Shown: positions 1 through 64,000 of the stretch, piece after piece
Position numbering within the stretch: the stretch's first letter is position 1
Layout: each line of letters begins with the position of its first letter
Assembly (NCBI GenBank): GCA_963749655.1
Contig: CAVVOB010000030.1
Span: 224,001 to 288,000, forward strand
Origin: Nitrospirota bacterium
GTDB lineage: Bacteria > Nitrospirota > UBA9217
Length of the DNA stretch: 64,000 nt
Direction of reading: 5' to 3'
Position numbers and translations under genes: made by a program
Notes under the pieces: model-generated
The model's database searches: none
Seen by the model: only the letters and a program-made list of their open reading frames with translations
What the model was told of the DNA's origin: nothing

Positions 1-897
1 TACATACAGTGGTATCCCACGCTCCGGTGCAATCGGGCCTGCGATTTCTGTTTCAACCGCTCCCTGTCTCCGCTTCCGGACATGACGGCTGCGGATTTCA
101 CGGCGATGCTTTGCACGCTCGACCGGGCCGGTGTCCGGACCCTCGACATCATGGGCGGTGAGCCGACACTGCATGTGGATATCGTCGCTTTTGTGCGCGA
201 GGCTGCCTCGTCGGGCTTCAGCATTAATATCAGTTCGAACGGTTCGAATCCCGGTGTTCTTTCGGAACTCATGGACGCGGGGGAGGCGGTGACGGTCGGC
301 ATTTCGATCAATGATGGGGAAACACTTGTCCGGCTCAGGGATTTCATCCAAGAGCATAGACCGGTGGTCAAATCCCTGTTCAGCCGGAACACAGACCATG
401 ACATGATCGGGGACATTCTTTCGCTCCAGCCGAAGAAATTCTATTTGATCTACCGCGATGCGCTTCATCAACGGGAGCTTGGAGACACCGTCCCGTTCCC
501 CGAGTTTGCGACGACGATAGAAAACAGCTTTCCTTCAGCTCAGGTCGGCACGGTCTTCTGCTCAGGTTTTCTTCCCGATAGGTCGAGCTTGCCCGAGCTT
601 GCGGCTGTCCGGTGCCCCGCAGGTACGACCAAACTGGGCGTGCTGCCTGATGGGTCAGTTTATCCCTGCAACCTCTTTTTCGGCATGAAGGACTTTTTTC
701 TCGGCAACCTGCTTCGCAGTCCCTTTGAACATATCCTGCAGCACCAGGCGCTTGCCTGTTTCCGCAGTTTTGCCGGAAACCCCTGCACACAGGCGGTCTG
801 CCGGTTCCATGCGCAATGCCACGGCGGTTGCCCGGCCCAAAGCCTTTTACTCGCCGGCAATCTGAGCGCGCCGGATCCGCGATGCAATCCCTGTTGA
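1..897 (+). CDS. Radical SAM/SPASM domain protein (5'-truncated by window edge)
   Basis: Frame 1 is open from base 1: YIQWYPTLRCNRACDFCFN gives CxxxCxxC. GGEP motif present. C-terminal SPASM cysteines (CPAG...DGSVYPC...CxxxxCxxxxxCxGGCP...PDPRC). Confidence 0.9.
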   Translation, partial: YIQWYPTLRCNRACDFCFNRSLSPLPDMTAADFTAMLCTLDRAGVRTLDIMGGEPTLHVDIVAFVREAASSGFSINISSNGSNPGVLSELMDAGEAVTVGISINDGETLVRLRDFIQEHRPVVKSLFSRNTDHDMIGDILSLQPKKFYLIYRDALHQRELGDTVPFPEFATTIENSFPSAQVGTVFCSGFLPDRSSLPELAAVRCPAGTTKLGVLPDGSVYPCNLFFGMKDFFLGNLLRSPFEHILQHQALACFRSFAGNPCTQAVCRFHAQCHGGCPAQSLLLAGNLSAPDPRCNPC

Positions 898-985
898 CCG
901 CTGGACAGGGCAAATCCGATATTCCTGCAGTGTGATGGTGCGCTTCTGATATAATAATGAAAACTTGAACAGAGGAGGCTTGTTT

Positions 986-1261
986 ATGGTTACAGCCCTG
1001 GTACTGTTGACTGTGGCGCGAGACAAGGTAAACAAGGTCGCAGAGACGCTGGCGGACATGGACGGCATCACCGAAGTTTATTCAGTGGCAGGACGCTTCG
1101 ATCTGGCCGTGATCATCCGCGTCAAGGATAACGACCAGATGGCGGAGATGGTGACGAATCACATGCTGAAGGTGGATGGGATTCTTACTTCGGAGACGCT
1201 TATAGCCTTCCGTGTCCACTCCCGCCACGATCTGGAAAGTATGTTCTCCATCGGCCTGTAA
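986..1261 (+). CDS. Stand-alone Lrp/AsnC ligand-binding (RAM) domain protein, no HTH
   Basis: EVYSVAGRFDL...GILTSETLIAF pattern; GGAGG SD before ATG 986. Confidence 0.85.
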   Translation: MVTALVLLTVARDKVNKVAETLADMDGITEVYSVAGRFDLAVIIRVKDNDQMAEMVTNHMLKVDGILTSETLIAFRVHSRHDLESMFSIGL

Positions 1262-1464
1262 GAGACATACAAGCATCAGGACCCGACCTACCCACCCTTC
1301 CTCAGGATATTCATGTCCGCTATCATGCATTTGCGGAACCGGAGGAATGCCGCTTTGCGCCTGAGCGAGCCGCAAAATATCGTTGTGTGCGTTCTCGAAA
1401 TAGTATAAAATGACTGCACTTTTTGTTGCAGTTCTCCATTTCCCAAATTCGTTCAGGAGGTAAC

Positions 1465-2823
1465 ATGAGACAGACGAAGATCACCCTTTCAGACAAGGAA
1501 ATTCCGACCAAATGGTACAATATCATGGCCGATATGCCGAATCTGCCCAAGCCGCCGCTCCATCCGGCGACCAAGCAGCCTGTGGGACCCGATGACCTCA
1601 AGCCGATTTTCCCCATGGACCTGATCCTTCAGGAAGTGAGCCGGGACCGCTGGATCGATATCCCAGAGGAAGTGCTCGACATCTATACTCTCTGGAGGCC
1701 GTCGCCGCTCTTTCGCGCCCACCGGCTCGAAAAGGCCCTCGGCACGCCTGCCAAGATCTATTACAAGTACGAAGGCGTGAGCCCTGCCGGCAGCCACAAG
1801 CCGAATACCTCCATTCCGCAGGCCTTCTACAACAAGAAGGCGGGCATCAAGCGCATCGCCACCGAGACGGGAGCGGGCCAGTGGGGCTCGTCCATGGCGC
1901 TCGCCGGCAAGCTCTTCGGCCTCGACGTGACGGTCTACATGGTGAAGGTGAGTTTCGGCCAGAAGCCTTACCGCAGGATGATGATGGAGACCTGGGGCGC
2001 TACGGTGCACGCGAGCCCGTCTACGTTGACCAATGCGGGCAGGAAGATCCTCGAGGTTGATCCCAACAGCACGGGCAGTCTCGGCATCGCCATCTCCGAG
2101 GCTGTGGAGGACGCGGCAACGCACAACGATACGAATTATGCTCTCGGGTCGGTCCTGAACCATGTGTGCCTCCACCAGACGGTCATCGGCCAGGAAGCAA
2201 AGAAGCAGCTGGAAATCGCCGGCGATTATCCCGATGTGGTCATTGCCTGCTGCGGCGGCGGGAGCAACTTCGCGGGGATCGCGTTCCCCTTTCTCCAAGA
2301 CAAGCTGACCGGCGGAAAGAAGAATCTCCGGGCCATCGCGGTGGAGCCGACGTCCTGCCCGACGCTCACCAAGGGGGAGTTCTGCTACGACTACGGAGAC
2401 GTGGCGGGCATGACGCCGCTGCTGACCATGTACACCCTGGGCCACGACTTCATGCCCTCGGGCATCCACGCCGGCGGGCTGCGCTACCACGGCGACTCCC
2501 CGCTCGTTTCCCAGCTCTACCACGACAAGATCATCGAGGCCCGGGCTTACGGTCAGACAAAATGCTTTGAGGCGGCGGTGCTCTTTGCCGGGACGGAGTC
2601 GATCATTCCGGCGCCGGAAAGCAGCCATGCGGTACGGGCGGCGATCGACGAAGCGCTGCTGGCCAAGCAGGAAGGGAAGCAGAAGACCATCCTCTTCAAC
2701 CTGAGCGGCCACGGATACCTCGATTTGCAGGCCTATGCCGATTACCGGGAAGGCAAGTTGTTCGACCACGAGCACCCGGAAGCGGACATCAAGAAGGCGC
2801 TCGAGAAACTGCCAAAAATCTGA
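1465..2823 (+). CDS. trpB2: TrpB-like PLP enzyme (TrpB2, tryptophan synthase beta type 2)
   Basis: [41 protein letters not shown] motifs; AGGAGG SD before ATG 1465; no adjacent trpA. Confidence 0.93.
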
Positions 2824-2837
2824 ATGAGAGAAATTTC

Positions 2838-2871
2838 AAAGCTCCCCGCTTTCCGGCGGGGAGCTTTTTTT
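2838..2871 (+). terminator. Rho-independent terminator after trpB2
   Basis: AAAGCTCCCCGC-loop-GCGGGGAGCTTT followed by T-run. Confidence 0.9.
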
Positions 2872-3045
2872 GTCTGTGGGTCCGGCCTGGTTACGGCTGC
2901 GGCAGGGAAGGAACAGCTTCACGCGGATGAAACATTTCCCTAATGCATTACGACCGGTCTTTTGTATCGGAGGGTCAGCTAGGAGGTTTGCAGCAGCGAA
3001 ACGGAACTGCGCAGGCAGTTGGTGCGGGATTCGCAGATGCGATCT

Positions 3046-3723
3046 TTACACTTTATCCTTCAGATGGTCGAGGGCATTGCGGGCAACCAGGAAGTTACCG
3101 CCGACTTCCTTGATGATGCCCTTGGTATAAAGAACTTTCATGCATTTCGAGACAGCCTCCCTCGATGAACCGATGCGGGCCGAGAGCTCCTTGTGGGTCA
3201 GCTTTGTCGCTTTGAGATACCCTTTCATGTCGGACTGGTCCGCGGCCGATCCATCGAGAAGCGTTCTGATGAGCCGCTCGCCCACTTCGAGAAAAGCGAG
3301 GGATTCGATCATGTCGTCTGCCTTGCGCAGCCGGTCGGCAAGCGTTGCCATGAGTTCGACCGCCAGCTTCGGTTCCTTGTACACCAGGTCGAGGAAGACG
3401 TCCTTTTTCAGAACAGCGAGTTCGGAGTCGTCGTCGGCCACAATGGTGGCCGAGCGTCCTTTGCCGTCGAGGAGGCTCAGTTCGCCGAAGAAAGCCCCCT
3501 TTTCGAACTGCGCAAGGACGATCTCGTCACCTTCCTCGTCGATAAGCACTGCTTTGAGCTTTCCTGAATTGACGATGTAGAGGTCGGTGCTGAGATCAGT
3601 CCGGTGGAAGATCACATCGCCCTTCCGGTACCGGGCGCTCTTGCAGCGTACGGCGATCTCCTTGACCTGAGAATCCTTGAGGTGTTTGAAAAGCGGAATG
3701 TTCCTGATGTATTCGGTGAGCAT
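3046..3723 (-). CDS. Crp/Fnr family transcriptional regulator
   Basis: cNMP-binding motif FFGELSLLDGKGRSAT; C-terminal HTH LTHKELSARIGSSREAVSK. Confidence 0.92.
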   Translation of the reverse strand: MLTEYIRNIPLFKHLKDSQVKEIAVRCKSARYRKGDVIFHRTDLSTDLYIVNSGKLKAVLIDEEGDEIVLAQFEKGAFFGELSLLDGKGRSATIVADDDSELAVLKKDVFLDLVYKEPKLAVELMATLADRLRKADDMIESLAFLEVGERLIRTLLDGSAADQSDMKGYLKATKLTHKELSARIGSSREAVSKCMKVLYTKGIIKEVGGNFLVARNALDHLKDKV

Positions 3724-3896
3724 GTTTTCTGCGGCGTGAAGGTTTCGCTCCCGGGAAATGAAGCGCCATCCCCTCCCTGCCTCCCCCCCTCGTCAGTGAA
3801 AAGAATTTCGGAGACGGACCTGACCGGATATGCCCGTCCCCGAGCAGCACGCTCACACGGCACAGTAAGTCAGCAGCCGCACCGGCATCGGCAGCG

Positions 3897-56235: not shown

Positions 56236-56266
56236 AAAGGCAAGGGTATTAACCCTTGCCTTTTTT
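56236..56266 (+). terminator. Terminator ending the ribosomal supercluster
   Basis: AAAGGCAAGGGT-ATTA-ACCCTTGCCTTT plus T-run. Confidence 0.9.
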
Positions 56267-56273
56267 ATTTGCA

Positions 56274-56302
56274 TTTACACAAAATTGCTTTTGTGTTAAA
56301 AT
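56274..56302 (+). promoter_or_regulatory. Putative sigma70 promoter of the signalling operon with overlapping palindrome
   Basis: TTTACA-17-TAAAAT; ACACAAAA-TTGC-TTTTGTGT inverted repeat at 56277-56296. Confidence 0.6.
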
Positions 56303-56331: not shown

Positions 56332-58435
56332 ATGGCAGAGGAAATAAGCATAGTCTCGCCTTTCATGTCGCGGGTGCGACGAGCAGCTTCCCGGTGGTGG
56401 GGCGGAATCGGGTGCCGCGTTTCTTTTTTCATGATGGTCGCGCTCATTCTTGTCGCGGCGCTTGTAGGCTCCTTTTTTTTCTGGGAAGAAAAGAAGAACC
56501 TTGATACCGAGATTCGAGGCAGAGCACTGTACGTGGCGCGTGAACTTGCAGCGCTGGCCGCAGACGACATCGTAACCGGCAACCGGTCCGAACTCTATAA
56601 GAAAATTTCCTCCTCCCTTTGTCGCCCACGAAGATTCCCCAGCCGGACGAACCCTCCTTTACTTGATGATTTATGACCGCGATTGTGAGCTCCTGATCGG
56701 AAGTACCGCGAACGAAGTCTTTTTCAACAGCGGTTCATATTTTTACACGCTCCCGTCAGAAAAGAGCGCGGTCCGTGATGAGGTCCAGCTGAAGTGCGAT
56801 CTTGAACAGTTGAACGAACCTTTCTTTACCGTTAAGAAGAATAATGTCTATGACCTGATTCTGCCGATTGCCGATGGAAAGATTACGGTGGGTTATGTGC
56901 GGGTCGGCATTTCAGGACAGCGGTTCGAGCAGCGATTCTCCGCTATCATGAAAAGAGCGGCTGTCGCGCTATTCGGCATCCTGCTCGTGGGGATGGCGTT
57001 CAGTCAGATCATCGCGCACGGCATAACAAAGCCGATCCAGCAGTTGAGCGATGCCGCAGAGAAGCTCAGCCAGCAGAATTGGGACGCACCGCTTCCTGTC
57101 AAAGGAGACGATGAACTGAGCAAGCTGGGGCACACTTTTAACCAAATGGCTCAGACGCTGAAGCAGCGGGAAGCAAGCCTTTCGAGGGGAAACCGGGACC
57201 TGTTCATTCTGCATACCACCGGTTTGGACCTCATGGAGAGCCTGGATCGGAACGCTCTTATCATTAAGGTGGCTGCACGAGTTGAAGATCTTGTGCGTGC
57301 GGATACGACAGCACTGTCTGTTGTGGATTCATCGGACCGGGTACTTACTTATTTGGGCGTGTACGGGCACAGGGCTAGAGTTCTGAAGGAGCGGGAACTC
57401 CCGATCGAGGCCGGCGGCATCTACAATTGGCTTGCGAGTTACGGAACCCCGCTTTTGATTTCGGACGCACAATCCGATTTTCGCCTCGACGGAGATTTGA
57501 TGCGCTCGCTCGGGGTGAGAAGCCTCATGGCTGTACCGCTGTGGTCGTCAAACACGATGATCGGGCTGCTCACGGCAGTGAATAAGAATGGCGGAGCTTG
57601 CTTTGACAAGCATGATCTAAGACTGTTCACGGTTTTCTCCAACCTCGTGTCAGCGGCACTGCAGAATGCGTCGCTCTATAACGACCTGAAGAACAAAATG
57701 GATGAGCTGAAGACAGCCCAGGAACAGCTTGTACGGTCTACCAAGATGGCGGCCATCGGAGAGCTGTCGGCCAATGTCGCACACGAGATAAATAATCCGC
57801 TGACGAGTGTCCTCGGGTATACAACGCACTTGTTGAAAACACTGGAGATGCCTGAACCGTCGAGAAAGATACTCGGGATGATGGAGCAGGAGACGCTCAG
57901 GGTCCGAAAAATAATCAGAAACCTTCTTGATTTCGCCCGTCAGCGGCCGGCATGGATGCGGCCCGAGGATGTGTCGATACCGCTTCGGGAAACGGTCGCT
58001 CTTTTCCAGGGAATCGCTCGCGATACATCCGTTGTCATTCGTGAAGATTATCAGCCTGGGCCGATTCTCGTAAATATGGATCATAATGAAATTAAGCAGG
58101 TCTTCATCAACATCGTCAATAACGCTCTCCAGGCCATGGAGGAGGGAGGGGAATTGAACATCCGCATGTACGGCCTGGACGAGAGCAATATTGTGATTGA
58201 GTTCCGGGATACCGGCACCGGCATCGAGCCGAAGCATCTCCATAGGATCTTTGAACCATTCTTTTCCACAAAAAACAACGGCGACGGAACGGGACTGGGG
58301 CTGTCCATCAGTTATCGCATTGTGCAGCATCATGGAGGGAGAATCGAGACGGAAAGCGTACCCGGGCACGGCACCACGTTCAAGGTTGTTCTTCCCCGGC
58401 ATCGTCACGTCTCGACAGCAGAGCAGTCACTATGA
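56332..58435 (+). CDS. Membrane sensor histidine kinase (TM-periplasmic-TM-HAMP-GAF-HisKA-HATPase), frameshift at ~56600-56660
   Basis: ORFs 56269 and 56663 join by a +1 shift. HAMP KPIQQL..DELSKLGHTFNQM, GAF LMAVPL..IGLLTAVN..FDKHDLRL, H-box AHEINNPL, N/G1/F/G2 boxes. Confidence 0.9.
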
Positions 58436-58451
58436 GCGAGGCGAGGGAAAT

Positions 58452-59375
58452 ATGAAGCGGATCAACTTCATGATTGCGGTCATCATGGTTCTGTCAATGT
58501 CACTGGGCTCCTGCCAGAAGGACAAAACTGATAGCAGGGATGACAAAAAAGTACAGGCTCAGCAGGAGCTGCTGATCGGACTGATTCCCGAGCAGAATGT
58601 GTTCCGGCAACGCGAACGCTACATGGCCTTGCGGAAGTATCTGACCGACAGGCTCGGCATCACCGTGAATTTTACGAGTCTCAGCAGGTACGGGAACATT
58701 CTCGAGCGTTTCACAACAGAAAAAATGGATGGAGCCTTTTTTGGCAGTTTTACCTTTGGCTTGGCCTACAGCCAGATAGGCGTTGAGCCGGTCGCAAGGC
58801 CGGTGAATCTTGACGGCACCTCCACCTACCACGGATACCTGTTTGTTCGAAAAGACAGCGGTATCCGCAGTGCAGCGGATATGCGCGGCAAACGCTTCGT
58901 GTTCGTCGATCGGGCGACGACAGCAGGCTATCTGTTTCCCCTCGCCTGGTTCAGGGAGAAAGGGGTTGCAGATCTGCGAAGCTATCTGGGAGAAACGTTC
59001 TTTGCCGGGAGTCATGACGCAGCCATTCTGGCTGTGTTGAACAGGGAAGCCGATATCGGTGCGGCAAAAAATACGATTTACGATCAGCTGGCATCGGAGA
59101 ACCCCCGTCTCAACAACGAACTGGCTATTCTGGCGACGTCCGGAGTTGTCCCTCAAAACTGTCTCGCAGTTCGCAAGAACCTCGATCCGGAGGTGAAAAG
59201 CGCCCTGAAAAAGGTCCTTGTGGAAATGGATCGGGACCGGGAAGGTGTGGAAGTACTGCGTCGGTTTGGTGCACGGGGTTTCGTCGAAACAAACAACACC
59301 GACTTCGCTTATCTGTATAAACTGACGTCGGAAGTCGGAATCGATCTGAAAACGTACCGGTACAGAAACGAATGA
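58452..59375 (+). CDS. PhnD/PtxB-like periplasmic binding lipoprotein without adjacent transporter
   Basis: Lipobox SLGSC; GLIPEQN, TYHGYLFVRKDSGI, FVFVDRATTAGYLFP, GSHDA. Confidence 0.85.
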   Translation: MKRINFMIAVIMVLSMSLGSCQKDKTDSRDDKKVQAQQELLIGLIPEQNVFRQRERYMALRKYLTDRLGITVNFTSLSRYGNILERFTTEKMDGAFFGSFTFGLAYSQIGVEPVARPVNLDGTSTYHGYLFVRKDSGIRSAADMRGKRFVFVDRATTAGYLFPLAWFREKGVADLRSYLGETFFAGSHDAAILAVLNREADIGAAKNTIYDQLASENPRLNNELAILATSGVVPQNCLAVRKNLDPEVKSALKKVLVEMDRDREGVEVLRRFGARGFVETNNTDFAYLYKLTSEVGIDLKTYRYRNE

Positions 59376-59388
59376 CGGGAACCTCTCG

Positions 59389-60828
59389 ATGAAGAAAAAA
59401 ATCCTGATGGGCTTCGGGCTGCTTCTCGCCATATTTCTCGGCGGAAGTATCATCGCCGTGATTTACATAACGAAGACGTCACAACGCATGGACAAGCTGA
59501 TCATGCTTCACCAGGTGGAAATTCTGCGCGAGGATCTGATCATTCATGTACAGCAGGTCCAGGCCCATATCTACCGGAGCAAGATCAGAAACGGCGGGGA
59601 TGCGGACGTGCTGATCGCACAGGTGCAGGAGATGGATCGCGTCATGGACTCCTGCGTGGGATGTCACCATTCTCCGGAACTGGCGCAGGGGCTGCTCGGC
59701 ATGCAAGACATGGCGAATGATTATAAGGGTGCGATCAGCCGGCTTCTCACGGCATCGGCGAATCCCCAGCGGATACTGGCGCTCGAACGTCGCGCACAGG
59801 ATCTGGGACAGGAGCTGATAACCATGACGCAGGGCATGGCCTTTACTGCCAATATGCGTCTTCAGCAGAAGACCCAGGAAACCATGGCCACCATCCGGGA
59901 AGTTCGTACAACGCTGTACGTCACTCTTCTGCTGGGGTTTGTGCTGGCGGTTCTTATCGCCTATTTCCTGGCAAGAAGCCTGGATCAACGCTTGAAAAAG
60001 CTCATGGAGGCAACCCGACGGATTGCCCGTGGCGAGCTGCAGCATCGGGTCGACATCGATGACAGCCCGGGAGGAGAGTTCGCTGAGCTGGCTGCATCGT
60101 TCAATACGATGACGCAAAACCTGCACCTTTCCCAGCGGCAGCTCGTGCAGAGCGCCAAACTGGCTGCAATAGGCGAACTTGCCACCAATGTCGCCTATGA
60201 AGTCAACAGCCCGCTGACCGGCATATTGGGGTACGCCGGTCTTTTGCTCAAGGCGGATGATATCCCTGATGAAAAGAAGGAACAATTGAGAACGATCGAG
60301 CGGGAAACCCTGAAGGCGAGGGAAACCCTGAAGCACCTGCTGGATTTTTCCCGAAGAAAACCCCCGCGGCTCGTTAACACTAATCTTTCAGCCCTCATCC
60401 AGGACGTTCTCGTCCTGGTCCGGGGACAGGCAAGAATGGGCAGCGTCGAGATCGTGCAGGACTGTTCGATCGGCCTGACGCAGATTGCCATTGACCCCGA
60501 TGAAATGAAACAGGTATTCGTGAATTTGATCAACAATGCTTTTTTTGCCATGCCGAAGGGAGGAAGGCTCTCAATCCGGTGCAGACAGGAGAGGGACCGG
60601 CTGGCCAAGGATGTCGTTGTCGTAGAGGTGACCGATACGGGTAATGGAATTCCGGAAGATCATATGGACAAGATATTTGATCCTTTTTTTACAACGCGCG
60701 CCGACAGCGGGGGAACGGGATTGGGGCTGTCGATAAGCTATATGATTGTCCAGAACCATGGTGGACGAATCGATGTGGAAAGCAAGTTAGGCCAGGGCTC
60801 GACGTTTCGGGTCATACTGCCGGTTTAA
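59389..60828 (+). CDS. Membrane sensor with periplasmic CxxCH and HAMP; kinase-like core with His->Tyr H-box
   Basis: Two TMs flanking CVGCH (codons 89-93); HAMP; H-box AYEVNSPL (TAT at 60196-60198); intact N, G1 (DTGNGI), F and G2 (GTGLGL) boxes. Confidence 0.88.
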   Translation: MKKKILMGFGLLLAIFLGGSIIAVIYITKTSQRMDKLIMLHQVEILREDLIIHVQQVQAHIYRSKIRNGGDADVLIAQVQEMDRVMDSCVGCHHSPELAQGLLGMQDMANDYKGAISRLLTASANPQRILALERRAQDLGQELITMTQGMAFTANMRLQQKTQETMATIREVRTTLYVTLLLGFVLAVLIAYFLARSLDQRLKKLMEATRRIARGELQHRVDIDDSPGGEFAELAASFNTMTQNLHLSQRQLVQSAKLAAIGELATNVAYEVNSPLTGILGYAGLLLKADDIPDEKKEQLRTIERETLKARETLKHLLDFSRRKPPRLVNTNLSALIQDVLVLVRGQARMGSVEIVQDCSIGLTQIAIDPDEMKQVFVNLINNAFFAMPKGGRLSIRCRQERDRLAKDVVVVEVTDTGNGIPEDHMDKIFDPFFTTRADSGGTGLGLSISYMIVQNHGGRIDVESKLGQGSTFRVILPV

Positions 60829-60932: not shown

Positions 60933-62461
60933 ATGGCTGGAGAAAAGATTCTCGTCGTCGATGACGAGGAAATGATCAGAGATCTTTGTTATCATATCCT
61001 GACGGCTGAGGGATACCAGGTGACTACGGTGGCCAACGGCGATGCGGCGCTGGAAGAGCTGTCCCGTTCAGCCGTGGATCTGATGATCACGGACATCAAG
61101 ATGCCGGGAATCGACGGACTCGAGCTCTTCGAGCGGGTGAAGGAGCAGAACCAGGACCTGGTAACGATTTTTATCACCGGCCATGGCACACTCGATACGG
61201 CGATCGAGTCGCTCATGCGCGGCGTTGACGGGTTCGTCCTCAAACCCTTTACCCAGGAGGAATTGCTCGGCGCGGTTGACCGTGCCATCAGCCGGAGCAG
61301 GCTCAAGAAGGAGAACATCAGGCTCAAGGCCTTGATCCCGCTGTTCGAGATCAGCAAGCTGCTGGTGACCGAGATCGATCTCGCGCATTTGTTCAAGATC
61401 ATCACCGAGGTGCTGGTGCAGGAATTCTCCGTGGACCGCGTCTCGCTTATGCTCATGGATGAGGCCAGCGGTACCCTCCTGATCCGCGCGTCCCACGGTC
61501 TGCCGACGGAGACGGCCTTGAAAGCCCGCCGCAGGATGGGCGAGGGCGTTGCCGGACTGGTGCTGAAATACAGAAAGCCGCTCATCATCTCGGCGGGAAA
61601 GCATCCGGACCAGGAGGTGATGGACGTGATCAATCTTGAGAACATGCCGGCATCATCGATGTCGGTTCCGCTCATCGGCAAGAATAAGATTTTCGGCGTG
61701 CTGAACGTGAGCAAATTGTCCGGCCCCCCCTTTACCACGAGCGACCTCCAGGTCGTCCTGATCCTCTCGAGCCAGGTGGTCACGGCCATGGAGAACGCGT
61801 CGTTGTATGAAGACCTGCGCGAGAATTACTTCCGGACCGTACAGGCTCTCGTGGCGGCCGTCGAGGCTAAAGACCCTTATACCCGCTGGCACTCCACCAA
61901 TGTCGCGAAATATGCAGTGGCGATCGCGACGGGATCATCGGCATGAGTCCGTCCCAGCTCGAAGAGATCCACATCGCATCCATTCTCCATGATGTCGGCA
62001 AGATCGGCATCAGCGAGCTCATCATCAGCAAGCCGGAGCGCCTGAGCAGGGAGGAATTCGACATTATGAAGGACCATCCGGCCCATGGTATCAGGATCCT
62101 TGAGCCGATCGGATTTTCTCCCTCCATTACGAGCGCCATTTATCAGCACCACGAGCGCTGGGACGGGAAAGGTTACCCCCGGGGGCTGTCCGGAGAACAG
62201 ATTACGCTTTCCGCCCGCATCCTGAATGTCGCCGATACCGTCGATGCCATGGTGTCCGAGCGTCCCTACCGCGGTACGATATCGAGCCAGCAGGTTCTCC
62301 TGGAGCTGGAGCGGGAGGCGGGACACCAGTTTGATCCGCAGGTTGCCGCATCCGCACGGCGTCTGATTGAAAAGGGCCTGCTCAAACTCGGCATGCATTC
62401 CTACTACCAGTATGCCGCTGCAGCGGATAAAATCGAGAAAAACAGCAAAGAAGCTCTCTAG
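60933..62461 (+). CDS. REC-GAF-HD-GYP response regulator (putative c-di-GMP phosphodiesterase), frameshift at ~61929-61940
   Basis: REC VVDDE..TDIKMPG..TG..KP; GAF; KDPYT..HS, LHDVGKIG, HHERWDGKGYP, VAD..DAM..RPYR. A net +2/-1 shift joins ORFs 60933 and 61943. Confidence 0.9.
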
Positions 62462-62532: not shown

Positions 62533-64000
62533 ATGAAAGCAGCGCGCCAGAGAGACATATCCCGGAACGAGGGACGTGATGACATGCTGCACCACCTCGG
62601 CAGTCTCGTGGACAGCGTTACCACGGGGATCATTTCTCTCGATGGCGAAGGACAGGATCCGCGTGTTCAACACTGCTGCCGAAACCTGGTTCGGCCTGCC
62701 GCGGGTCATGGTGATCGGAAGGCACATGGATGAAATCGGCAGGATCATGGGCTTTGACGATCATTCGCTCCGGGCGCTGTGGGAGAGGCTTTCCGACGCT
62801 GTCTGGGCTGCAGGCGCAGCGGTTGATCTCGAGTATGACCTCGTGCTGCAAAGGGGCCGGCGACGGACCATGAGCTACAGTGTCTATCCTCTCGGCCGGA
62901 CGGCGTGGTCGGTCGGCAACGGCGTCGTGATCATGCTGGAGGACATCACTCGAAAAAAGGAAATGGAGGAGCAGATTTCGGACGCCCGCAAGAGGCTGCT
63001 TGCCGTGTTCGACGGGATCACTGATGGAATACAGGTCATTGACGCAGACTTCCGGATCACTGCGGTAAACAAGTCTATGCGAACGCTTCTTGCCAGGAAC
63101 ATCAAGGTCGGATCGCTCTGCTACGAGGCGTGTTCCTTTGGTTCGACGATTTGTATCGACTGCCCGGCCGAGGAGACCTTTCGGACGGGACAGCCTGCGT
63201 CGCTTACAAAAAAGATCATCGATACTGCGGCCGGTCCTGATGAGCGCGTTGTGGAGATCAGCACTTTTCCGCTTCTGGACCGGGTCAATCGTGTCGTCCA
63301 GGTCGTGGAATATATCAAGGAAGTCACCGAAAAGGCGAGGCTCGCAGAACGGCTGGAACATTCCCGCAGGCTTGCCGAACTCGGTGAAATGGCGGCCCGC
63401 GTAGCCCATGAAGTGCGGAATCCGCTGAATGCAATTACCGGAGCCGCGCATTATCTTTCCACCGAACATGCCGACAATGAGACGCTCGTAAAGTTCACCG
63501 ATCTTATCAAGCGGCAGGCGACCAGGGTCAATCAGGTGGCATCGGACCTCCTGTATGTCTCCAAGCCCCTGCGGACCCGGCTTACGCCGGTGCAGGTGAA
63601 CGCCGTAATTGACCAGGTGCTCGATTCCCTCTGCGAGCAGCTCCACGATCAACGGATAGAAGTTGTCCAGTCACCTGCGCCGGACATCCCCCCGATCTTT
63701 GCCGATGAGCTCCAGATAGAACAGGCTGTTCAGAACATTCTCCGGAACGCAGTCGAGGCCATGTCCGGCGGCGGTACGCTCCGGATATCCACCGCGTTGA
63801 CGGCAGGGCGCTCCGTCGTGGAAATCATCATGGAGGACACGGGACAGGGCATTCCGGAACAGGACCGTGAACGGATATTTCAGTCCTTTTTTACCACAAA
63901 GATCAAGGGGACCGGTCTTGGATTGACCATCGTGCAGCGCGTTCTCAAGAACCACGGCGGCGAGATTGTAATGGAGCATCCGGCAGGCGGCGGCACCCGG
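62533..64000 (+). CDS. Cytoplasmic PAS-PAS histidine kinase (3'-truncated by window; +1 frameshift at ~62648), main frame not in ORF track
   Basis: Hand translation after the shift: RIRVFNTAAE (PAS1), AVFDGITDGIQVID..CYEAC..CIDCP (PAS2), AHEVRNPL, NILRNA, DTGQGI, FFTTK, GTGLGL; open to the window end. Confidence 0.88.

Follow-up and report, generated by a model that had tools for sequence, protein, structure and literature searches.

To our knowledge, the one well-studied natural histidine kinase that carries a tyrosine at the phospho-acceptor site is DivL. This protein of Caulobacter crescentus has Tyr550 at that position, binds an ATP analogue weakly and, in the account given by PMC4211667, shows neither kinase nor phosphatase activity. 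Sensor kinases with a dedicated periplasmic partner are known from the AioX/AioS/AioR, ArrX and ArxX systems, in which the AioX-type binding protein is described as the first signalling component (PMC5908839). Haem-c sensor domains have been reported on kinases, chemoreceptors and GGDEF proteins, and those treated in PMC12889525 and PMC3460858 are Cache/PAS-like with the motif on an inserted helix. Here we describe a gene from a Nitrospirota bacterium (assembly GCA_963749655.1, contig CAVVOB010000030.1, positions 224,001 to 288,000; this stretch of 64,000 nucleotides (nt) is the window throughout) that shares single features with each of these systems. It occupies 59389..60828 on the plus strand as an open reading frame of 479 amino acids (aa) and is called YHK here, for Tyr-for-His sensor. 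Its H-box reads GELATNVAYEVNSPL, with Tyr270 at the phospho-acceptor position encoded by TAT (60196..60198, plus strand), whereas the neighbouring kinases have His (ANVAHEINNPL in the upstream kinase HK1, ARVAHEVRNPL in the downstream PAS kinase). An earlier note on this DNA had pointed to this substitution, and the Tyr is indeed found at these coordinates.

The Tyr is conserved. A search with the sensor half of YHK (aa 1-260) gave 401 relatives, from which the best 120, 69-84% identical in that half, were taken; 114 full-length database proteins (at least 470 aa) together with the window protein form an alignment of 115 rows. Site 270 is Tyr in 111 of these, His in three and Cys in one. At the DNA level we compared 18 copies, the window and 17 syntenic loci from metagenome-assembled genomes: ten have TAT, six TAC and one CAT, and the remaining copy was not matched by the H-box pattern but has Tyr according to tblastn. 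Since both TAT and TAC are used, selection appears to act on the Tyr itself. One contig in this set, L010, is labelled Betaproteobacteria in its record, yet it is 75% identical to and syntenic with the Nitrospirota loci; the label is likely a binning or labelling error.

Among 201 sampled genomes of the phylum, 45 belong to one family of uncultured Nitrospirota and 156 lie outside it. With a threshold of 56% identity, orthologues of YHK occur in 24 of the 45 family genomes, the own genome included, with Tyr in 23 and His in one; none at or above this threshold was found in the 156 sampled genomes outside the family. The Tyr is thus fixed (111/115 proteins, 23/24 family genomes, two synonymous codons), and autophosphorylation on His has therefore been lost under selection. 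At greater distance (31-41% identity), six full-length homologues were taken as loci, and each of them has His. From the best 150 representatives clustered at 50% identity, 82 have CxxCH at positions 70-110; the H-box carries His in 38 of them and Tyr in one (P0121, 57% identity), while 43 were not matched by the H-box pattern and are other outputs, fragments or divergent motifs.

That the Tyr is a base-calling error, or YHK a pseudogene in an error-rich assembly, is a reading to which we give practically no weight. In its favour one could name the single base that separates TAT from CAT, which the earlier note had raised as a caveat, and the frameshifts in both flanking genes and in paralogues of the same genome. 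The alignment of orthologues at codon 270, which that note had proposed as a check, refutes this caveat, as 111 of 115 relatives, which come from many independent assemblies, share the Tyr and encode it by synonymous codons. Moreover, the YHK reading frame is intact and of full length, and the conservation of its domains equals that of the true kinase. Public sequencing runs were of little help here: none contained more than 0.13 of the sampled words of the window, no RNA run was among those listed, and assembly of four runs yielded short low-depth contigs of relatives only. One of these low-depth contigs (258 nt, run X1) spans 60027-60284 with three differences, and among the differences listed none falls on 60196-60198.

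The kinase core around the substituted site is well kept. It consists of HisKA (DHp; aa 262-324, 60172..60360, plus strand; Pfam PF00512, 42.5 bits at a cut-off of 26.9) and HATPase_c (CA; aa 369-478, 60493..60822, plus strand; PF02518, 99.1 bits) with N, G1, F and G2 boxes present; NCBIfam returned generic kinase families alone, every match being under its cut-off. Measured against a HisKA-type histidine kinase, YHK thus has the HisKA domain and the HATPase_c boxes and lacks the acceptor His. The earlier statement that the ATP-binding boxes are intact holds for the relatives as well. Over the 112 rows without His (111 Tyr and one Cys), N383 of the N box is kept in 107; D416, G418 and G420 of the G1 box and F430, D431 and F433 of the F box are kept in 112 each; and in the G2 box G442 is found in 95, G444 in 111 and G446 in 105. 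Next to the site, Glu271 and Asn273 are invariant (115/115 each), and position 274, equivalent to H+4, is Asn in 110 of 115 rows and Ser in the window protein. The regulator-docking stretch that follows is similarly constrained (T277 in 107, G278 in 111 and L280 in 114 of 115). In the same 12 genomes, the mean pairwise identity of the DHp domain is 0.887 for YHK and 0.837 for HK1, and that of the CA domain 0.721 and 0.694. By these comparisons the core does not appear to be decaying, the site flanks, ATP boxes and docking helix being as conserved as in HK1.

The earlier note called the protein DivL-like. By analogy of function this stands: both proteins have a conserved Tyr for the acceptor His in a HisKA/HATPase_c core, both keep the regulator-docking surface, including the positions +7 Thr and +12 Tyr named for DivL in PMC4211667, which are Thr277 and Tyr282 in YHK, and both likely play a modulatory role beside true kinases. 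It does not extend to architecture or ancestry. YHK lacks PAS domains and is built as a membrane sensor, in which a periplasmic bundle with the haem motif precedes HAMP; it comes from Nitrospirota and DivL from Alphaproteobacteria; and it keeps the ATP boxes as HK1 does and, across its relatives, the Asn at H+4. Because the nearest relatives of YHK are His-type kinases of Nitrospirota with the same sensor, its origin appears independent of DivL, a conclusion drawn from these relatives rather than from a direct alignment with DivL.

The history of the Tyr clade was followed by phylogenetic analysis. In a FastTree tree of 120 rows all Tyr rows group together to the exclusion of the His outgroups, and a trio of His-type sequences (P0015, P0016 and P0042, corresponding to loci L025/L032) is nested in a set of 54 rows with a support of 96. 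When 37 rows were compared by the approximately unbiased (AU) test in IQ-TREE, with the H-box columns removed, a position of the His trio outside a single Tyr clade was not rejected (p-AU 0.555). A reversion from Tyr to His in this trio is therefore not established, and we read the trees as showing a single change from His to Tyr in the YHK lineage. L025/L032 (genome G063; H-box GELAAIIAHEVNNP) are the only syntenic orthologue lineage with His. They further differ by N267I, N382D and G446E/L447M, giving a G2 box GLEMS; thus the restored or retained His sits in an altered ATP lid. A descendant lineage is represented by the database protein P0124 (479 aa, high-GC, 42% identity), in which the acceptor position is Gly and both H-box and G2 box are decayed. 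It retains the haem-motif sensor domain and marks a further step of core decay. A second Tyr-type family seemed at one point to be given by P0137 (648 aa, HAMP-PAS-GAF-HisKA, AYEINNP). It was ruled out, as His occurs in the three proteins nearest to it (59-66% identity) and as it is represented by one sequence on one contig; its Tyr is treated as sporadic or an error.

According to Pfam and the translation, the sensor half of YHK consists of an N-terminal transmembrane segment, a periplasmic domain of about 146 aa and a second transmembrane segment, and is followed by HAMP (aa 193-246, 59965..60126, plus strand; PF00672, 45.7 bits), HisKA and HATPase_c. The hydrophobic segments lie at aa 5-27 and about aa 174-195. 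Because it stands between these two, the CVGCHH motif (aa 89-94: Cys89, Cys92, His93 and His94; 59653..59670, plus strand) is placed in the periplasm, in agreement with what the earlier note had said of CVGCH. In a family alignment of the sensor domain with 87 rows, C89, C92, H93 and H94 are invariant and H41, R47, L50 and G140 nearly so (H41 in at least 90%). In the Tyr-type alignment H41 is found in 111 of 112 rows, and CxxCH is kept in all of the best 120 of the 401 relatives. YHK probably carries a c-type haem on this motif, and PF01578, the cytochrome c assembly family, is matched four times in the same genome. A candidate distal ligand, by its conservation, is His41 (59509..59511, plus strand), which belongs to the LHQVE motif in helix 1.

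The AlphaFold2 model of the sensor domain (aa 28-175, 59470..59913, plus strand) is a four-helix bundle with a mean predicted local distance difference test score (pLDDT) of 92.4 and a predicted TM-score (pTM) of 0.84. Its helices span residues 2-36, 42-63, 69-94 and 99-147 in domain numbering (add 27 for the full length). Helix 2 is short; judged by the helix lengths, CxxCH at its end would be at the same height as His41 in helix 1, in the half of the bundle nearer the membrane. The closest folds in the PDB are the Adeh_2942 sensor 4k0d (TM-score 0.81; Z 15.7, root mean square deviation 2.2, 141 residues aligned) and 8bsa (Z 16.0). Foldseek against the PDB returned nothing at E ≤ 0.001 (best 6e-3), and Pfam gave no match for aa 28-175 at E ≤ 0.01, including 4HB_MCP and TarH; the fold assignment is based on the TM-score, the VIA-align Z and the AlphaFold2 model itself. 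The language-model neighbours of the domain include clusters of 4HB_MCP_1, TarH, CHASE3 and KinB_sensor (0.94-0.97).

With four-helix-bundle sensors such as Adeh_2942, Tar/Tsr, PcaY and NarQ the domain thus shares the antiparallel fold and the topology between two transmembrane segments, but it is only 14-16% identical to 4k0d, and none of the matched structures is haem-bearing by its title. With GSU0582/GSU0935 and the sCache_haem domains it shares a single CxxCH in an extracytoplasmic sensor domain. It differs from them in being all-helical, a four-helix bundle whose helix 2 carries CxxCHH at its end, and not of the Cache/PAS alpha-beta fold.

Directly 5' of YHK lies a gene for a PhnD-like periplasmic solute-binding protein (58449..59375, plus strand; its stop is 13 nt before the ATG of YHK), probably a lipoprotein, with an LGSC lipobox-like motif near aa 18-21 as read from the translation. 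It matches PF12974 with 209.6 bits and TIGR01098 with 180.9 bits (cut-off 112). The nearest solved relatives of its profile are PtxB (5o2j, 3e-44), other phosphonate binders, AioX (6esk, 2e-25) and ArrX, the AioX/ArrX range being 2e-25 to 5e-24. Of 23 Tyr-type genomes that could be assessed, 14 have a homologue directly 5' of the sensor gene, as do 11 of 13 loci of His-type homologues (6/6 and 5/7), and a homologue also lies beside one of two paralogues in the own genome, the GGDEF protein. The genes flanking that of the binding protein encode kinases, with no transporter genes among them. Loci L054-L056, three of the six His-type ones, have a receiver domain 3' of the kinase, which reads as a canonical three-component layout. 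From this gene linkage, the PhnD-like protein appears to be a conserved partner of the YHK sensor domain. Elsewhere in the same genome, locus L003 (G000:C38:92759-96295, about 483-3536) carries a second copy of the module, with a PhnD-like protein directly 5' of a CxxCHH bundle sensor that is fused to HAMP-PAS-PAS-GGDEF; by its domain content, the same input pair would there also feed c-di-GMP (cyclic di-GMP) synthesis.

The arrangement resembles AioX/AioS/AioR and ArrX/ArxX in that a binding protein of the PhnD/PtxB family stands beside a sensor kinase. It differs in three respects: the binding protein of the window is closer to PtxB and the phosphonate binders than to AioX, no arsenic genes were seen near the YHK locus, and the partner sensor has a haem motif and has lost the acceptor His. 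Periplasmic or lipoprotein partners on helical-bundle sensors are also known from XylFII-LytS (5xsd), QseG-QseE (9m08) and GlnH-GlnX (PMC9769921 for the part it covers, and entry titles), which have other partner families, no haem motif and no Tyr core.

A model of the complex of sensor domain, haem and binding protein suggests that the latter docks on the tip of the bundle. Three runs gave ipSAE interface scores of 0.74, 0.63 and 0.61 (median 0.63), with at least 83% of the contacts in common and a partner pLDDT of at least 88, and the controls remained at 0.00 as the best of three. The modelled interface is the membrane-distal end of the bundle (full-length residues 69-83 and 113-128), touching both lobes of the binding protein. 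In 14 genomes with an adjacent gene for this partner, conservation is 0.701 in the interface and 0.713 in the rest of the domain; in 9 genomes where that gene is not adjacent, the values are 0.560 and 0.744, a comparison of related genomes in small groups, which lowers its weight. Two further points lessen the support for docking. In calibration, 58 of 80 solved complexes attained the ipSAE mark, as did 2 of 110 mismatched pairs, but our score, unlike this calibration, was obtained with custom alignments and a ligand; and solved complexes of binding proteins with helical sensors exist (5xsd, 9m08), so that passing the mark may reflect likeness to these.

Conservation of gene order places YHK in a defined setting. 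The order is rpoA-rplQ-HK1-[binding protein]-YHK-REC-GAF-HD-GYP-PAS kinase, and HK1 upstream together with the regulator downstream is found in 15 of 17 YHK loci. In five out of five examined family genomes without YHK, rpoA-rplQ-HK1 is followed directly by the regulator. Therefore, HK1 and the regulator form the core two-component pair, and the binding protein and YHK are an accessory cassette inserted between them. In another genome, G127 (loci L022/L048), YHK, there with the H-box SEVAANIVYEVSSPL, and the regulator come directly after rplQ; no HK1-like match at E ≤ 1e-60 was found in this genome, which is 89% complete.

The reading that we favour, tentatively and at not quite an even chance, is that YHK modulates c-di-GMP signalling as a kinase-dead protein, by binding the regulator or by acting as a phosphatase. 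It would be the accessory sensor of a three-component input module. The PhnD-like lipoprotein would dock on the membrane-distal tip of the periplasmic bundle, and a c-type haem would be held covalently by CxxCH near its membrane-proximal end. Both signals would pass through the second transmembrane segment and HAMP to a HisKA/HATPase_c core unable to accept phosphate on His but still able to bind nucleotide and to dock the REC-GAF-HD-GYP regulator. This regulator may be shared with HK1, which would be its phosphodonor, while YHK would lower or buffer its phosphorylation by a HisKA-type phosphatase activity, by binding the regulator or its phosphorylated form, or by both, and in this way set c-di-GMP hydrolysis. 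A modulatory role without phosphodonation, in line with the modulation that the earlier note had proposed among other modes, is the most economical reading of a YHK whose operon also encodes true kinases and a single response regulator. A precedent for the phosphatase branch is CrdS, whose HisKA core shares the motif H-E-I-x-N-P. According to the data in PMC3510030, its H371A variant retains most phosphatase activity (half-life of CrdA~P 2.6 min, compared with 0.7 min for the unmutated enzyme and 53.5 min when kinase is absent), N375A, which matches H+4, abolishes this activity, and E372 is needed for kinase but not for phosphatase activity. A HisKA core without His can thus dephosphorylate a regulator if Asn or Thr is present at H+4 (PMC3510030), although the CrdS variants are laboratory mutants and the Tyr of YHK is natural and fixed.

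Several observations speak against this role. Glu271 is invariant and the ATP boxes show the conservation of a true kinase, and a pure phosphatase or binder would have no obvious need for Glu271. At H+4 the window protein has Ser and not Asn or Thr. Loss of the His can also kill phosphatase activity, since the phosphatase of PleC is described as requiring its His (PMC3510030), and the precedent DivL is a weak ATP binder that lacks phosphatase activity in the account of PMC4211667. Furthermore, one locus, L022, retains YHK and the regulator without HK1. Finally, if six specificity-type positions are compared (H+7, +8, +11, +12, +14 and +15, chosen in part from what PMC3892784 describes), YHK equals HK1 at only three of them, by T, G and Y; it equals the PAS kinase at one, and this greater likeness to HK1 counts in favour of the reading.

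The same conservation could mean that Tyr270 is itself phosphorylated by the CA domain, the phospho-Tyr being a slow, stable regulatory mark that changes the dealings of YHK with HK1 or the regulator without serving as phosphodonor. All kinase-specific features except the His are kept (Glu271 in 115/115 rows, box residues in 95-112 of 112), the CA identity of 0.721 is not below the 0.694 of HK1, and the residue that became fixed in 111 of 115 rows is Tyr rather than any non-phosphorylatable residue. DivL, too, reportedly autophosphorylated on Tyr in vitro in an early report. Nevertheless, we regard a tyrosine autokinase as unlikely, as nucleotide binding serves in some kinases as a cofactor for the phosphatase conformation, and as P0124 has kept its haem domain although Gly stands at the site and both H-box and G2 box are decayed; this protein lacks an acceptor, and therefore the family can function without one. 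For DivL, later work describes no autokinase activity (PMC4211667). More doubtful again is a signal-gated form of this idea, in which the haem state and the ligand-loaded binding protein would control phosphorylation of Tyr270, and a long-lived phospho-Tyr would set release, sequestration or dephosphorylation of the c-di-GMP regulator; if true, it would explain why the kinase residues except His are kept as tightly as in HK1. YHK might also act on HK1 instead of the regulator. It would then sense the phosphorylated regulator in a reverse, DivL-type signalling, or pair its DHp domain with that of HK1, and either switch HK1 allosterically or trans-phosphorylate the His of HK1, adding the haem and binding-protein inputs. 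The two cores of the locus are 46-50% identical, DHp helix 1 is near-identical around the site, and the genes are adjacent in 15 of 17 loci. L022, which has YHK and no HK1 in the locus, does not fit such a role well, and paralogous kinases usually evolve to avoid heterodimers. A Tyr pseudokinase that controls another kinase has its precedent in DivL (PMC4211667); still, we give control of HK1 a low probability.

The remaining features of the locus complete the picture of a signalling operon. Behind rplQ a consensus scan finds a strong terminator-like hairpin with a 12-bp stem (56236-56263, plus strand), followed by a promoter-like site (56274-56302, plus strand) that is the probable start of the operon; the same kind of scan finds no terminator-like site of comparable stem between the downstream operon genes. 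HK1 (56332..58435, plus strand) has a transmembrane segment, a weak single-Cache-like periplasmic part, HAMP, GAF, HisKA and HATPase_c, with its acceptor His encoded by CAC at 57782. In the window it is split by a frameshift near 56663-56676 (pieces 56332..56676 and 56663..58435), whereas it is a single frame in orthologues, for instance L011 (starts at 3787 and 4117, a distance of 330 nt that is 331 nt in the window). The response regulator REC-GAF-HD-GYP (60933..62461, plus strand) is by Pfam a probable c-di-GMP phosphodiesterase (Response_reg 108.5 bits, GAF_2 56.8 bits, HD_5 120.7 bits). It is likewise split near 61943 (pieces 60933..61946 and 61943..62461) and a single frame in orthologues, with starts 1008 nt apart against 1010 nt in the window. 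Because the paralogues L002 and L003 of the same genome are frameshifted as well, both frameshifts are likely indel errors of the assembly. The conserved downstream neighbour is a His-type PAS-PAS histidine kinase (62576..64000, plus strand) that extends past the end of the window.

In the main texts of open-access papers and bioRxiv preprints we found no description of a Tyr-type kinase in Nitrospirota, nor of a haem-c four-helix-bundle sensor. Within this literature, we found two features of the sensor side undescribed: a four-helix-bundle domain with an invariant CxxCHH haem motif, carried by kinases and, in this genome, by a GGDEF protein, and the habit of this domain to be encoded together with a PhnD-type binding protein. 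Another Tyr clade, independent of DivL and conserved widely, would be informative because its ATP site and phosphatase motif are kept. It would show whether a Tyr at the acceptor site is a general route to a one-way modulator, or whether such cores phosphorylate the Tyr. For the Nitrospirota of sediment and groundwater, our results suggest that a redox or gas signal and an oxyanion-type ligand are integrated by one receptor to set c-di-GMP.

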